A stretch of DNA of 32,000 nt from Schaalia odontolytica (GCF_005696695.1 NZ_CP040006.1:90001-122000), one strand, 5' to 3'. Shown: positions 156 to 9,653, numbered from the stretch's first letter. The notes: generated by a model not told the origin, from the letters alone. Made by a program: numbers and translations.

Positions 156-662
156 ATGATGAGTGGAAAAGATGAGGCAGCGATACCTGTGGGGGTTGCT
201 CCTAGCAGTCCAGCGAGGGCTCGGGTGTCTGAGGGCATCTCTCCTGCATCGCCGCAGTGGCAACAGGGAACGGCTGCGCGGATCCTGCCCGCGAAGCCCA
301 TCGTGAAGAAGCCGCGGGTTCCCAAAATTTGGATCATCTTTGCCGTCGTCGGCCTGCTGCTGCTTCTCGCGCCGAGCATCGTCACATTCCTGATTAATTT
401 AGGGCCTGGGGATCACTCGGATAATGGCGATGGTCAGTACTGGCTTCCGGGTCTTCTCCTCGTCCCATGCATGATTTTTGGTTTACTCACCGTATTTCTT
501 GCTTTCTGCGTGGGAATTGGCGAGTGGGTCGCATGGGTGTGGACTGCACGTCAACAAAACGCGCTGTCGGCGCGCATGTTCATCATTCCCCCGGTGGTCA
601 TAGTCGCCTTTTACTTCGTTACCAGATTCTGTGGGGCTACTCTGTTCAATCTTGGCATCTAG
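156..662 (+). CDS. small multi-pass membrane protein, array family 2 (basic patch, TM, Asp/Gly loop, TM) with extra C-terminal hydrophobic segments
   Basis: ORF 153..662. GAGGAGG at 145-151 precedes ATG 156/159. Ala/Pro-rich N-terminus, then KKPRVPK and hydrophobic segments. Loop LGPGDHSDNGDGQYW parallels IPGDHGDSGDGLAW of the 7699..8103 product. Confidence 0.7.
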   Translation: MMSGKDEAAIPVGVAPSSPARARVSEGISPASPQWQQGTAARILPAKPIVKKPRVPKIWIIFAVVGLLLLLAPSIVTFLINLGPGDHSDNGDGQYWLPGLLLVPCMIFGLLTVFLAFCVGIGEWVAWVWTARQQNALSARMFIIPPVVIVAFYFVTRFCGATLFNLGI

Positions 663-700
663 CGAAACTACCCGATGCAGCGAGCGAGCGTAGGCTCGTC

Positions 701-755
701 GGGGCCTTCGTGGCTGCCGTGCTGCTCGCCGCGGCCGTTGCGCTATGGTGGTGGT
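701..755 (+). repeat. intergenic repeat family A, copy 2 (full core)
   Basis: Contains core GCCGCGGCCGTTGCGCTATGGTGGTG (729-754). Reads ...RRLVGAFVAAVLLAAAVALWWW-stop in frame 2. The following 756-812 (leader plus first codons of the next gene) is repeated at 1765-1823. Confidence 0.8.
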
Positions 756-793
756 AGTCATTACCCCAGCGACGGGCAGTGAAAGGACCAGGC

Positions 794-1174
794 ATGAACG
801 AGAGTAACGACGTGACGATGCGCGGCGAGAATGTCCCCGAGGCCATGGTTGCATCCGCTGTCGTGGCGCAGCCCGTCGCGCCTGGCGGATCGACCGCGGC
901 AATCACTGGCGCACCTGTTACTCCCCCGCGGCGTCGGGGCTCAAAGCTGGCGCGCTTCTTCGTCATCTTGGGGATCGTGCTGCTCTCAAGCGTGTTCGTT
1001 TTGCCCCTGCTAGCTGAAGCGATGGATAGCGGCAGTAATCCCTCCGGTGTCGCGAGCGGCTGGACCTTCTTCTTCGCCGTGTTTTATGTTGCCCCCTTCG
1101 GTCTTATTTCGTTCCTGCTCGCGATCTTCGCCAAGCTCGCGCAGAAGCTTGATGAGAAGGAACAGGGCCTCTGA
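794..1174 (+). CDS. small 2-TM membrane protein, array family 2
   Basis: ATG 794 preceded by AAAGGA (782-787). Motifs PPRRRGSK then TM, SGSNPSGVASGW loop, and second TM with YVAPFGLISFLLA. Paralog of 1273..1722 and 1805..2092. Confidence 0.75.
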   Translation: MNESNDVTMRGENVPEAMVASAVVAQPVAPGGSTAAITGAPVTPPRRRGSKLARFFVILGIVLLSSVFVLPLLAEAMDSGSNPSGVASGWTFFFAVFYVAPFGLISFLLAIFAKLAQKLDEKEQGL

Positions 1175-1189
1175 GGGTTTCAACCGCGC

Positions 1190-1212
1190 GCCGCGGCCGT
1201 TGCGCTATGGTG
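1190..1212 (+). repeat. intergenic repeat family A, copy 3 (partial core)
   Basis: GCCGCGGCCGTTGCGCTATGGTG is identical to the core of copies 2 and 4. Lies between the stop of 794..1174 and the start of 1273..1722. Confidence 0.7.
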
Positions 1213-1272
1213 CTGGTTCTGGGGTACCCCGGTGTCTTCCCGAATGGAATAGAAGGCCGTTAAGGCGGCTTC

Positions 1273-1722
1273 ATGATCTGGAGGTTGCTTCAGTTGGATA
1301 GCGTGCTGTTACTTGTCGCCCCCATCCTCATTATTTTCCTTATCGCGCTGGCAATCGATGCTGGGGTAACGAAGAGGCGCGAGAGGAAGGCCGCCGAAGC
1401 GGCGGCGTGGGCCGCACAGGCCTACGGAGCTGCTTGGGATCCTCAAGGCGCACTGAGCGTCCAGAAACCACGCCGCGGCTCAAAGGTGGTGCGCTCCTGC
1501 GTCATTTTGGGATTCGTTATCCTGGGAAGCGTCGTCTATTGGCCGCTGTTGGTGCTCCTGGTAGACCCTATTGTTTCGGGTGGCAATGCATCAGAAGCTG
1601 ATGCTGGCCTTATGTTCCTGTTGTGCCTTATCTTCGTGGCTCTGTTCAGCCTTCTTGCCTTCCTGTTCGCCTTCATTGCACATCTCGCCGTCAAGGGTGC
1701 GGAGCGGAATCAGGGGTACTAA
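1273..1722 (+). CDS. small 3-TM membrane protein, array family 2
   Basis: ATG 1273. C-terminal two thirds (KPRRGSKVVRSCVILGFVILGS...SGGNASEADAG...LAVKGAERNQGY) align residue for residue with the 794..1174 product (PRRRGSKLARFFVILGIVLLSS...SGSNPSGVASG...LAQKLDEKEQGL). Confidence 0.75.
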   Translation: MIWRLLQLDSVLLLVAPILIIFLIALAIDAGVTKRRERKAAEAAAWAAQAYGAAWDPQGALSVQKPRRGSKVVRSCVILGFVILGSVVYWPLLVLLVDPIVSGGNASEADAGLMFLLCLIFVALFSLLAFLFAFIAHLAVKGAERNQGY

Positions 1723-7586: not shown

Positions 7587-7698
7587 GAAAGCCGCTCCGA
7601 GGCCTTGTGACTGTCGATGCGTGGCGTGAACATATGCTCGTTTAGGATTGTGATCGCAGCCCGCATGGGCGCACCGATCAACACGTGAAGGACCGACC

Positions 7699-8103
7699 GT
7701 GACAACCCCGAACCCGTACCTCCCGGACTCGCATCCCGCTCCGGGGTATCCTCCGGAGAACGCGACTCCCACTCAATGGGGCGCGCAGCCTATGAACGGT
7801 GCGATGGGCCAGGGGTATGTGCCTGCCGCACAGCCCGGCTATCCGGGCCAGGAACCCGTGCCTCGCGCGAAGAAGAGGCGGAGCATCGGCGGTATCATCC
7901 TGCTCGTCTTCGGTGCAGTCATCGTCATGGCGTCGATTGCTGGCTGTCTCGCGATCGATCTCATCCCCGGAGACCATGGGGATAGCGGGGACGGGCTCGC
8001 CTGGGCCGGCGTTGCACTTCTTCTGTACGTGGTCCCCTTCGGCCTGATGTTGATGGTCTCTGGCCTCATCCTGGTGTGTGCAGCCCGCAGTCGCTCACGG
8101 TGA
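7699..8103 (+). CDS. small 2-TM membrane protein, array family 2, Pro-rich N-terminus
   Basis: GAAGGA (7687-7692) 6 nt before GTG 7699. AKKRRS then TM, loop IPGDHGDSGDGLAW, second TM with YVVPFGLMLMVSG. Confidence 0.75.
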   Translation: MTTPNPYLPDSHPAPGYPPENATPTQWGAQPMNGAMGQGYVPAAQPGYPGQEPVPRAKKRRSIGGIILLVFGAVIVMASIAGCLAIDLIPGDHGDSGDGLAWAGVALLLYVVPFGLMLMVSGLILVCAARSRSR

Positions 8104-8151
8104 CCCCATCCGGTGGGTACTCAGACGTAATGAATAACGAGTGAAGGACCG

Positions 8152-8649
8152 ATGATGACAATGCCACATTCTCCCGGTTCCGGGATGCCTGGCACCCCCG
8201 GAAACGCGCCAGCCTACCCCGGAAATGCGCCGGTCTACCCCGGTGCCATCCCGGGCAACCCCTACGGCGACATGCAGCCGGTACTGCAGGTTGCGGCTCC
8301 GCCCAGCCATGGCCTCGTCGTAGCCTCCATATGCCTTGGGGTTATTGGGATCGTCTTCTGCGTTGGCGGGCTGTTCTTTGGAGCCTATACCTCGTTCGAC
8401 TCGCACGACTCCTTTGAGAGGGTTATCGCTCCGATCAACTTCATTCTCGTCGTCGCGATGGTCTATATCCTGGGTGGGATTATGAACATCATCGGCCTTG
8501 TCCTTGGCAAGACCGGGCGCAAGCGGGCGCAGGATCCGCGTCACGCGAAGGCGTGCATGGTGGGGATTTGGCTGAATGCAGCCCCGATGCTTGTGTTTCT
8601 GGTTGCCGAGATCCTGGCCGTCCTCTGGATGATGGAGACTAGCCTATAG
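8152..8649 (+). CDS. small 4-TM membrane protein, array family 1
   Basis: GAAGGA (8143-8148) before ATG 8152/8155; the second ATG has the better spacing. Motif MNIIGLVLGKTGRKRAQDPRHAKACMVGIWLNAAP. Confidence 0.75.
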   Translation: MMTMPHSPGSGMPGTPGNAPAYPGNAPVYPGAIPGNPYGDMQPVLQVAAPPSHGLVVASICLGVIGIVFCVGGLFFGAYTSFDSHDSFERVIAPINFILVVAMVYILGGIMNIIGLVLGKTGRKRAQDPRHAKACMVGIWLNAAPMLVFLVAEILAVLWMMETSL

Positions 8650-8693
8650 CGGATGCCTCTGTCCCATTGCTCTCGACGAATGAAGGACTACCT

Positions 8694-9137
8694 GTGACGA
8701 CTCCATATTCGACCGGTCCCGGCTTGAACGGGTATCCGGCCCAGGCTCCCCAGCAGCCCGCCGTGCCTGGACGCAGCCGGGGCAAGGCCTTAGGAGCAGC
8801 GTGTCGCGGATTCGGTATCACCGGACTCGTTGTCTTTGCACTGGTCATCCTCGGGACGCTGGTGTACGTGCTGATTCCCAGGGGTGAGCACGGGCTGGAC
8901 CTGGCCCCGATTGCCTTCATCTTCGTGGCCGGATTCTTCTCTATCCCCGTCATCGCGGTGAACATTATTGGCCTGGTTCTGGGCTTCGTTGCGCTCAAGC
9001 AGACGAAGAACCCCTCCGAGCGCGGCTACATCGCCCGAGGCCTGCTCATGAATGCTGCGCCGCTCGTGGTTGTTGGCCTCGTCGTTCTTCTGATCCTCTT
9101 GATCTACGGGTTCTTCTACCTCATCTCCTTGTTCTAG
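8694..9137 (+). CDS. small 4-TM membrane protein, array family 1
   Basis: GAAGGA (8682-8687) 6 nt before GTG 8694, preferred over the TTG at 8667 in the ORF track. Motif VNIIGLVLGFVALKQTKNPSERGYIARGLLMNAAP. Confidence 0.7.
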   Translation: MTTPYSTGPGLNGYPAQAPQQPAVPGRSRGKALGAACRGFGITGLVVFALVILGTLVYVLIPRGEHGLDLAPIAFIFVAGFFSIPVIAVNIIGLVLGFVALKQTKNPSERGYIARGLLMNAAPLVVVGLVVLLILLIYGFFYLISLF

Positions 9138-9194
9138 GACCTCCCGGACCCGACGAACTCTGCTCCCACACCATCAACTTCCCAAGGAACACCA

Positions 9195-9653
9195 GTGACA
9201 ACACCAATTCCCCAGGCCCCGGACACGAATACTTCCCCCGGATACGGCGGCCAGCAAGTGCCCAATCCTCCACAGGCCGAGGGCCTGCCGCAGGAAGCCA
9301 CGCAGCCCGCAATGCAGCAGAATTGGGGACAGATGCCCGTCGATCCGGGAATGCAAGCGGGAATCCCGCAGGCTGGGCCGGTGGCCTATGGGCCTGCGGT
9401 GCCCGCGCGGCGTCGTAGGTCGTACGCGCCGGCGGTTATTTTGTTTGGAATTGGCTTGCTGCTTACGATTTTGCCCCTCGTAGCCACGCTATTCCTTGGC
9501 CGTGCTACCAACGGCTTCCAACACAATAGCGATACTCTATTTTCGTTCTTAGGGCAGTTGTTCTACGCCCTGCCCATCGGCATGATCCTGATCCTGGTCT
9601 CTGGCATCGTGGCAATCTTGGTTGCTGTGATGAACTCTTCGTCGAAGAGCTGA
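9195..9653 (+). CDS. small 2-TM membrane protein, array family 2, Pro/Gln-rich N-terminus
   Basis: AAGGAA (9184-9189) before GTG 9195. ARRRRS then TM, loop, and second TM with YALPIGMILILVSG. Confidence 0.75.
   Translation: MTTPIPQAPDTNTSPGYGGQQVPNPPQAEGLPQEATQPAMQQNWGQMPVDPGMQAGIPQAGPVAYGPAVPARRRRSYAPAVILFGIGLLLTILPLVATLFLGRATNGFQHNSDTLFSFLGQLFYALPIGMILILVSGIVAILVAVMNSSSKS

Follow-up and report, generated by a model that had tools for sequence, protein, structure and literature searches.

Studying a 32,000-nucleotide (nt) stretch of Schaalia odontolytica DNA (NZ_CP040006.1:90001-122000; hereafter the window) reveals, between positions 156 and 9653, an array of 15 co-directional plus-strand genes for small membrane proteins together with one gene for a HAD hydrolase. 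The first 10,662 nt of the window match contig LLVT01000001.1 of S. odontolytica XH001 (GCA_001462375.1) with no mismatches, window position 1 being contig position 722,992, and the XH001 locus tags are used here (array APY09_02995 to APY09_03075, HAD gene APY09_03020). This oral strain, formerly Actinomyces odontolyticus and available as a draft genome, is the laboratory host of the ultrasmall, parasitic Saccharibacteria epibiont TM7x. Its annotation lists the 15 array genes and APY09_02995, 16 small genes in total, only as "hypothetical protein". A literature search with the locus tags APY09_030xx and APY09_0299x returned no discussion of the array genes, the sole match being the adjacent transporter gene APY09_02990 in a preprint. 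The locus is a lineage-specific accessory gene array in XH001, made up of two protein families, Family 1 with nine genes and Family 2 with six.

All 15 open reading frames (ORFs) proposed in a first-pass annotation of the window are present at their starts and on the plus strand; as ORFs they are conserved across dozens of genomes, and they are transcribed. A purine-rich, Shine-Dalgarno-like motif precedes every one of them, though it is weak before 1273. The products are indeed membrane proteins of 95-270 amino acids (aa) with 2, 3 or 7 hydrophobic helices in hydropathy plots, and most of the 15 have a low-complexity N-terminus of 16-75 aa which is rich in Pro, Gln, Ala and Gly (PQ-rich tail). 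The two families were also described as interleaved or alternating, which had to be given up: the actual order is four Family 2 genes, the HAD gene, seven Family 1 genes, one Family 2 gene, two Family 1 genes and a last Family 2 gene. The array begins left of the window, whose edge cuts APY09_02995 (95 aa, a single transmembrane helix, TM), the first gene after an ABC/FtsX transporter pair. The genes are as follows; where needed they are named by family and start position (for example F1_8152).

2-119, plus strand: 3' end of APY09_02995 with one C-terminal TM, ending in ...AAVAFWWF and a stop codon in the frame translation; the full gene lies at 9679-9966 of the related locus L003
156-662, plus strand: Family 2, APY09_03000, 168 aa, 2-TM core with an extra C-terminal hydrophobic segment
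794-1174, plus strand: Family 2, APY09_03005, 126 aa, 2 TM
1273-1722, plus strand: Family 2, APY09_03010, 149 aa, an extra N-terminal hydrophobic helix replacing the PQ-rich tail
1805-2092, plus strand: Family 2, APY09_03015, 95 aa, 2 TM
2186-3049, plus strand: Cof-type HAD-IIB hydrolase, APY09_03020, core gene and anchor flanked by both sub-arrays
3173-3688, plus strand: Family 1, APY09_03025, 171 aa, 3-TM unit behind a PQ-rich tail of 66 aa
3767-4570, plus strand: Family 1 fusion, APY09_03030, 267 aa, 7 TM, unit plus linker TM plus unit, two Family 1 profile domains
4804-5304, plus strand: Family 1, APY09_03035, 166 aa
5345-5773, plus strand: Family 1, APY09_03040, 142 aa
5802-6614, plus strand: Family 1 fusion, APY09_03045, 270 aa, 7 TM, paralog of 3767 with 61% aa identity
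6698-7108, plus strand: Family 1, APY09_03050, 136 aa, the most divergent member (leave-one-out score 17 bits)
7137-7586, plus strand: Family 1, APY09_03055, 149 aa
7699-8103, plus strand: Family 2, APY09_03060, 134 aa
8152-8649, plus strand: Family 1, APY09_03065, 165 aa, confident 3-TM model
8694-9137, plus strand: Family 1, APY09_03070, 147 aa, top (sub-threshold) DUF4190 match
9195-9653, plus strand: Family 2, APY09_03075, 152 aa, last gene of the array

The embedded hydrolase, correctly recognised in the first-pass annotation as lying inside the array, matches Pfam Hydrolase_3 at 3e-41 and the NCBIfam HAD-SF-IIB subfamily with 66.8 bits (cut-off 41.8), while its best NCBIfam match, the Cof subfamily TIGR00099, reaches 125.1 bits and stays below the cut-off of 137.

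The assignment to two families was borne out by an all-against-all comparison of the products, in which within-family BLAST E values range from 1e-96 to about 1e-4 (for example 3e-96 for 3767/5802, 9e-39 for 3173/5345 and 6e-17 for 794/1273). Leave-one-out tests with hidden Markov models (HMMs), controlled by 200 shuffles and the reversed sequence of each unit, gave 17-82 bits for all 11 Family 1 units against at most 10 bits for the controls, and 22-71 bits for six out of six Family 2 members against at most 11.6 bits. The motifs by which the families had been defined held only in part when applied strictly: the TM2 motif is found in six and the TM3 motif in five of the nine Family 1 proteins, the Y-x-x-P-[FIA]-G motif in three of the six Family 2 proteins, and the remaining members lack them. 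Relaxed versions fit all nine Family 1 members. In APY09_03050, Ser and Cys replace the two conserved Asn residues.

Hydropathy indicates three helices in each of the seven short Family 1 proteins, seven in the two long ones, and two in Family 2, with one additional hydrophobic segment each in F2_156 and F2_1273. A Family 1 unit consists of TM1, a short acidic outer loop, TM2 with its N-[LIV]-x-G-... end, a basic loop of 9-14 residues, and TM3 starting with G-x-x-L-N-x-x-P; the hairpin of TM2, basic loop and TM3, with its Asn and Gly motifs, is the conserved core. The two long proteins, 3767 and 5802, are 3+1+3 fusions, a structure which is absent from the first-pass annotation; in XH001 and its close relatives, both halves of each score 98-108 bits on the Family 1 unit HMM. 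As one linker helix lies between the two units, the same orientation of both would be restored, and the fusions imply a side-by-side pairing of units within the membrane. A module for helix-helix interaction would agree with the Asn and Gly positions conserved inside the membrane. AlphaFold2 models the 3-TM unit (F1_8152, alignment of 84 sequences) with a predicted local distance difference test score (pLDDT) of 86.4, about 95 over the TM2-TM3 hairpin, and a predicted template modelling score of 0.76; the model of the 7-TM protein 5802 has seven helices but a pLDDT of 62.8 and is unreliable for tertiary structure. In hhalign, Family 2 aligns with TM1-TM2 of Family 1 (probability 90%, E 1.4e-6), although TM proteins inflate such scores; the two families are probably related and may share an origin.

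The unit-plus-unit architecture raises the question of a small-unit transporter or channel, in which two 3-TM units would together build a pore or carrier of 6 TM, comparable to the step from semiSWEET to SWEET, and the conserved intramembrane Asn residues would line the route of a substrate or ion. Both the 3-TM unit and the 3+1+3 forms do mirror the semiSWEET/SWEET and PQ-loop architecture, and Asn is conserved in TM2 as well as in TM3. However, a Foldseek search of the Protein Data Bank (PDB) with the 7-TM and the 3-TM models returned no SWEET, PQ-loop or other transporter (best E 0.04 and 0.42, respectively; the top match of the 3-TM model, an auxiliary TM subunit of CatSper, has a non-significant E of 0.42), and a PDB sequence search with the Family 1 profile gave no match to a solved structure. 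The 7-TM model is of low confidence, and it would be strange for one transporter to exist in a dozen diverging copies. We regard a transport function as very improbable.

In the charge pattern, positive residues stand before TM1 and in the TM2-TM3 loop, and the TM1-TM2 outer loop is acidic. This distribution predicts an N-in topology for both families: the cytoplasm would contain the PQ-rich tails together with the basic loop, and no loop would expose more than 5-18 residues on the outside. The first-pass annotation offered surface variation as one option; a related possibility is that the locus provides receptors or decoys to which phage or epibionts attach. The gene content is variable between strains, the short outer loops are the most variable segments in orthologs of the 7-TM proteins, and the organism hosts both TM7x and the phage LC001. 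However, loops of the predicted size would lie below the Gram-positive wall, no phase-variation repeats or invertible elements were seen in repeat and motif scans of the window, and the published phage-receptor determinant of XH001 is a wall-polysaccharide cluster elsewhere in the genome. Because the tails and the basic loop are predicted to be cytoplasmic, the surface option is unlikely, and among the explanations weighed here it is the one to which we give the least credit.

The resemblance of Family 1 to DUF4190, noted in the first-pass annotation, survives as a distant likeness but falls short of the Pfam cut-off. Two proteins match DUF4190 (PF13828) below the gathering cut-off of 35 bits, F1_8694 with 18.0 and F1_8152 with 12.3 bits, the latter over the TM2-loop-TM3 hairpin and nearly the whole 62-position model; the other seven Family 1 proteins and the single-copy protein of the related locus L043 have no Pfam DUF4190 match. 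A Family 1 profile run against 1.84 billion representatives finds 103 clusters at a library-wide E of 1e-3 or better (33 at 1e-10 or better). Of these 103, 21 have a Pfam DUF4190 match (best E 2.3e-9), some with zinc-ribbon N-termini, and TM composition may inflate these scores. The few named members among the clusters looked up all come from oral Schaalia, Actinomyces or Pauljensenia. From these profile comparisons, the most fitting description of Family 1 is that of a branch of DUF4190-like proteins which has diverged and is restricted to this lineage, without being a member by the criterion of Pfam. Family 2 has 272 database relatives, none with a Pfam domain, and no NCBIfam match above cut-off. 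DUF3566 gave only a chance-level match in Pfam (E 0.71), and a literature search for DUF4190 yielded nothing related.

The intergenic regions record how the array expanded. A repeat search shows that 3028-4570 was copied at 4655-6614 in a segmental duplication, which includes an 85-nt stretch with 96% identity, itself part of the leader described below, and the following non-coding features, all on the plus strand, accompany this and other duplications.

694-758, plus strand: scar, copy of the APY09_02995 3' end, 86% identical to 58-122
1186-1217 and 1735-1766, plus strand: further, degenerate copies of the APY09_02995 3' end, seen as repeats and in translations
3050-3172, plus strand: leader copy 1, upstream of F1_3173
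4655-4692, plus strand: scar, copy of the terminal 38-nt region of the HAD gene, 89% identical to 3028-3065, marking the duplication junction
4681-4803, plus strand: leader copy 2, upstream of F1_4804

The copies of the APY09_02995 3' end, which read ...AAVALWWW followed by a stop, lie before three Family 2 genes. The NCBIfam model LAXTG_small_WW (NF058583) was considered for such endings and rejected: only F2_7699 reaches 18.6 bits against a cut-off of 65, and neither the WW-ending fragments nor the other Family 2 proteins match. The intergenic repeats which end in ...WWW or ...WWF before the stop are thus better read as scars of the APY09_02995 3' end. Since the scars derive from the 3' ends of the anchor genes, both sub-arrays have expanded by tandem duplication of units starting inside the 3' end of the upstream anchor. 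Copies of the leader, too, mark duplication junctions.

The leader, about 120 nt long and present in one to three copies per locus (L001-L048), is 90-98% identical across species, compared with only 50-80% in the downstream proteins. Its predicted RNA fold is less stable than that of shuffles (z +1.17), and an Rfam scan of the whole window found no RNA family; a riboswitch or structured leader is therefore unlikely. Promoter and terminator consensus scans gave the same counts as in shuffled sequences. The leader is probably a promoter or operator with a ribosome-binding site and also a substrate for unequal crossing-over.

For comparison with relatives, the HAD protein was used as an anchor to collect 41 loci from one-genome-per-species collections and ten metagenome or genome loci, which were labelled with the two family HMMs and flanking markers. 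The HAD gene is kept in 41 of 41 loci, and the Family 1 HMM finds units in 40 or more related loci. The conserved frame reads ahcY (reverse), ABC ATPase, FtsX-type permease, P95, zero to four Family 2 genes, HAD, zero to 13 Family 1 and Family 2 genes, an optional cassette of one to three S8 proteases, P587 and P163 (all reverse), P200 (reverse) and ppiA. Within the S. odontolytica complex, whose HAD proteins are 87-97% identical, the content after the HAD gene goes from no gene at all (L020) up to 11 Family 1 units, and the richest array comprises 11 Family 1 units and six Family 2 genes. The view that this is no fixed housekeeping locus is thereby upheld, as the copy number ranges from none to about 13 genes in close relatives and differs between strains; even strains with an identical F2_156 protein differ after the HAD gene in the number and type of genes. 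The distal gene order (orthologs of 6698, 7137, 7699, 8152, 8694 and 9195) is kept in many strains; change is concentrated in the proximal part, where the duplications are recent. Further out, no array is present in S. turicensis, S. vaccimaxillae, A. mediterranea and Schaalia sp. lx-260, whose HAD proteins are 58-69% identical, while a sister clade (L042, L043, L044 and L047) has exactly one Family 1 gene at the same site, coding for 194 aa in the three loci from which the full ORF was extracted (L042, L043 and L047). Taken together, the repeats and gene contents show that the array started as one Family 1 gene under strong constraint and grew through successive tandem duplications by unequal crossing-over.

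Three side observations concern the collected loci. Four of them (L011, L030, L036 and L049), titled Xylanimonas cellulosilytica 352_XCEL, Sanguibacter keddieii 250_SKED and uncultured Xylanimonas metagenome-assembled genome, contain the same array and a HAD protein 94-97% identical to that of XH001; they are almost certainly mislabelled or contaminated Schaalia assemblies. In S. turicensis (L038, 10897-11230), HAD and the P200 homolog are separated by a spacer with no Family 1 or Family 2 gene but with a tandem-like repeat, one frame of which reads ...TTTPTTPNATKP... and which is probably non-coding. The Actinomyces bouchesdurhonensis locus (L034, 13646-18849) has three partial ppiA-like matches within 5 kb, which may represent a disrupted or duplicated ppiA region or an assembly artefact.

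As had been judged by eye, the array is less GC-rich than the conserved core, with a GC content of 0.61 against 0.68 and a third-position GC content (GC3) of 0.72 against 0.89; the embedded HAD gene is core-like (GC3 0.90). At comparable synonymous divergence (dS), the ratio of nonsynonymous to synonymous rates (dN/dS) is about 0.3-0.8 for array orthologs, in comparison to about 0.05-0.15 for HAD, PpiA and P200, and 0.3-0.65 for array paralogs. For some array genes dS is below that of the HAD gene when one and the same pair of genomes is compared, a sign that strains may have exchanged them. In the sister clade, the lone Family 1 gene behaves differently: of three species pairs, two give a dN/dS of 0.13 and the closest, which has little divergence, gives 0.43. 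The value of 0.13 is similar to the 0.13-0.18 of the HAD gene in the same genomes for those two pairs, and the tail of the single-copy protein is preserved in length. Because the sister clade keeps this one gene under strong purifying selection, the ancestral protein probably had an ordinary, constrained cellular role.

These data also bear on an explanation by drift. A recombination-prone, repeat-flanked site could gain and lose copies of a dispensable membrane-protein gene which drift under relaxed constraint and have no functions of their own, so that near-neutral duplication and decay would account for what is seen. The repeated leaders and the scars are suitable substrates for unequal crossing-over, dN/dS is raised yet below 1, GC3 is low, some loci contain fragments or short ORFs (the 40-aa and 49-aa calls in L002), and L020 lacks the entire array. 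On the other hand, nearly all copies have intact ORFs, Shine-Dalgarno sequences and hairpin motifs across many species, the distal order persists in many strains, the dN/dS values are well below 1, and all genes are transcribed. Drift of dispensable copies is thus an unlikely explanation of the array.

The genes on both sides deserve description. Directly before the array in nearly every S. odontolytica-complex genome examined lie genes for a 241-aa ABC ATPase and a permease of the FtsX type with 455 aa (L003, 7418-9507), annotated as defence or macrolide-type exporters and absent from the distant array-less Schaalia species. After it, on the minus strand at 9719-14388, a variable cassette convergent to the array encodes P587, P163 and two paralogous secreted S8 proteases, with zero to three S8 genes depending on species. 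The S8 proteases score 144 and 154 bits on the type VII mycosin model TIGR03921, below its equivalog cut-off of 278.75. Mycosins are expected to have a C-terminal membrane anchor; both S8 proteases end in ...SPRYHAK without a C-terminal TM. P587 (587 aa) has a helical N-terminus and a long Gly-rich repeat of the GGLGA type (12.3-12.9 kb, GC 0.75), and P163 (163 aa), the last gene of the cassette, contains a W-G-T motif reminiscent of WXG100 proteins; neither has a Pfam, NCBIfam or PDB match. The XH001 tags of these neighbours are APY09_03085 (S8 protease), 03090 (P587), 03095 (P163), 03100 (P200) and 03105 (ppiA). P200, at 14617-15219 on the minus strand, is a 200-aa protein with one C-terminal TM and no Pfam match, 59-100% identical and divergent from ppiA in all relatives; its position corresponds to that of cwsA (Rv0008c) in mycobacteria. 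The remainder of the window (15371-32000) is a conserved actinobacterial origin-proximal block with ppiA, a rhomboid gene, DUF4213/DUF364, (crgA), DUF881, a class E sortase gene, pabA/trpG, pknB, pknA, pbpA, rodA/ftsW, pstP, fhaB and fhaA.

Published data on XH001 give a first view of expression and essentiality. In the RNA sequencing (RNA-seq) time course with TM7x, all array genes have measurable expression and none differs significantly from naive cells, except for a marginal drop of 03000. For 13 of the 16 small genes, expression falls modestly from the initial encounter to recovery (log2 -0.55 to -1.3 for recovery versus initial encounter). The genes pknA, pknB, pbpA and rodA move with the array, while P200, ppiA and the rhomboid gene move oppositely, P200 being upregulated together with the latter two in the recovery phase; APY09_02985 is increased in recovery compared with naive cells. 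In saturated transposon sequencing (Tn-seq), the region APY09_02980-03105 contributes none of the 203 putatively essential genes, a list on which fhaA (APY09_03170) is found. A search for literature on host mutations evolved under TM7x gave nothing relevant.

The proximity to wall and division genes allows for an accessory role at the envelope or in the cell cycle. The proteins would then be membrane-anchored disordered scaffolds, perhaps kinase substrates, which modulate wall synthesis or division and are encoded next to the crgA/pknAB/pbpA/rodA cluster, and the array would be an expansion of paralogs of such a scaffold. Other Pro-rich actinobacterial membrane proteins of the DUF4190 or DUF3566 type are the comparison here, and the distant relatives of Family 1 are DUF4190 proteins. 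The array adjoins the block from P200, ppiA, rhomboid, crgA, DUF881 and sortase to pknB-pknA-pbpA-rodA-pstP-fhaB-fhaA and shares with pknA, pknB, pbpA and rodA the class of genes higher in the initial encounter. Above all, the single-copy gene of the sister clade, with its dN/dS of 0.13 and its preserved tail, points to a strongly constrained ancestor, and for this reason the envelope role stays the main rival. However, the genes are non-essential and are missing from L020 and several Schaalia species; large copy-number variation, fast evolution and low GC3 are unusual for division or wall machinery; and the adjacent P200, ppiA and rhomboid genes respond in the opposite direction. On balance we consider an envelope or cell-cycle role rather doubtful, although it deserves to be kept in mind.

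We rank first, as a tentative reading, a conflict-related role in membrane protection, similar to immunity. A conflict- or environment-facing role is suggested by the differences among close relatives, by a raised dN/dS together with a low GC3, by outer loops which vary, by the dispensability of the genes and by the variable, defence-annotated neighbours. In such a role the proteins would act as oligomerising membrane-embedded binding subunits, whose TM hairpin would engage a membrane target through helix-helix contacts, while the disordered PQ-rich tail would serve as a cytoplasmic spacer. The diversified repertoire would face conflict instead of housekeeping, a candidate function being protection or immunity against membrane-active toxins, phage or epibiont attack.

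Several observations weigh against this protective role. Pairwise dN/dS never exceeds 1, meaning that positive selection is not demonstrated and that a relaxation of constraint would explain the values just as well. Constraint on the single-copy ancestor equals that on a housekeeping gene and hints at an ordinary role in physiology, and the expression changes on contact with TM7x are small, with none relative to naive cells. Neither the window nor the related loci yielded a toxin domain. The S8/P587/P163 cassette is convergent to the array, on the opposite strand, and present or absent independently of it; it has no toxin match in Pfam, NCBIfam or the PDB. When the gaps between genes in 50 related loci were screened for additional cargo (toxins or transposases, for example), only P587 variants came to light. 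The small proteins match nothing in PADLOC or PHROGs: among 22 proteins scanned no family was matched by more than one protein, the families hit being of the ABC, ATPase, subtilase and protease type, and ten small proteins scanned singly against PHROGs gave no family. Long PQ-rich tails are atypical of known immunity proteins, and neither the PDB sequence search nor Foldseek provided a structural analogue. The immunity cluster proposed in the first-pass annotation therefore remains a guess, as no cognate toxin was found and PADLOC and PHROGs are silent.

A more specific form of the protective reading would make the array a host-side membrane determinant of the relation between Saccharibacteria and their hosts (or of attack by phage). 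Every paralog would be directed at a membrane-active effector delivered by epibionts such as TM7x, neutralising or modulating it, and differences between arrays would help to set which strains are parasitised and survive the initial killing. This we consider a long shot.

If the proteins do protect against membrane-active attack, Actinomycetota would have an immunity repertoire of a new kind. XH001 serves as model host for the first cultured Saccharibacterium, and both Tn-seq and allelic replacement work in it. The locus is among the most variable membrane-protein regions beside the conserved origin-proximal division cluster, and it offers a natural series, from absence over one constrained gene to about 13 diverging genes, in which duplication, fusion (3-TM to 3+1+3) and diversification of small membrane proteins can be studied. 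It also gives a functional handle on uncharacterised DUF4190-like proteins, which are common in Actinobacteria.

Four known systems lend themselves to comparison. DUF4190 is a two-TM hairpin domain with no function assigned, often found behind a Pro-rich or zinc-ribbon N-terminus. Family 1 shares with it the low-complexity N-terminal tail followed by TMs rich in small residues, but differs by the extra TM1 before the hairpin, the fused 7-TM forms and the copy-number-variable tandem array. Arrays of small polytopic membrane immunity proteins, encoded beside toxins which depolarise membranes, are represented by the 3-TM immunity proteins of the colicin E1 type and by the multi-copy TsaI next to the type VII toxin TspA in Staphylococcus aureus. 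The Schaalia array likewise consists of tandem paralogs for small proteins with 2-4 TM, differs in copy number from strain to strain and diverges fast; however, no linked toxin gene, LXG/WXG-toxin domain or secretion apparatus was found here, and the long PQ-rich cytoplasmic tails and the constrained single-copy ancestor set it apart. In semiSWEET/SWEET and PQ-loop proteins, a 3-TM unit evolved into a 3+1+3 fusion. Family 1 parallels this with its 3-TM unit and its 7-TM form of two units and one linker helix in the same orientation, in architecture only, as comparisons of sequence and fold gave no match and TM1 of Family 1 lacks a PQ motif.

Finally, the mycobacterial origin-proximal genes for Rv0007 (DUF3566) and CwsA (Rv0008c) adjoin ppiA and are single-copy. 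The Schaalia proteins are similar in having a Pro-rich N-terminus and C-terminal TMs, and their genes lie just ahead of ppiA and a small, divergent TM gene, in the vicinity of crgA and pknB; the comparison is positional only. As a lineage-specific paralog expansion of DUF4190-like membrane proteins the array is thus of a familiar kind, whereas this particular locus, Family 2, the series from 3-TM to 3+1+3 fusions and the copy-number range from 0 to 13 have not been described previously.

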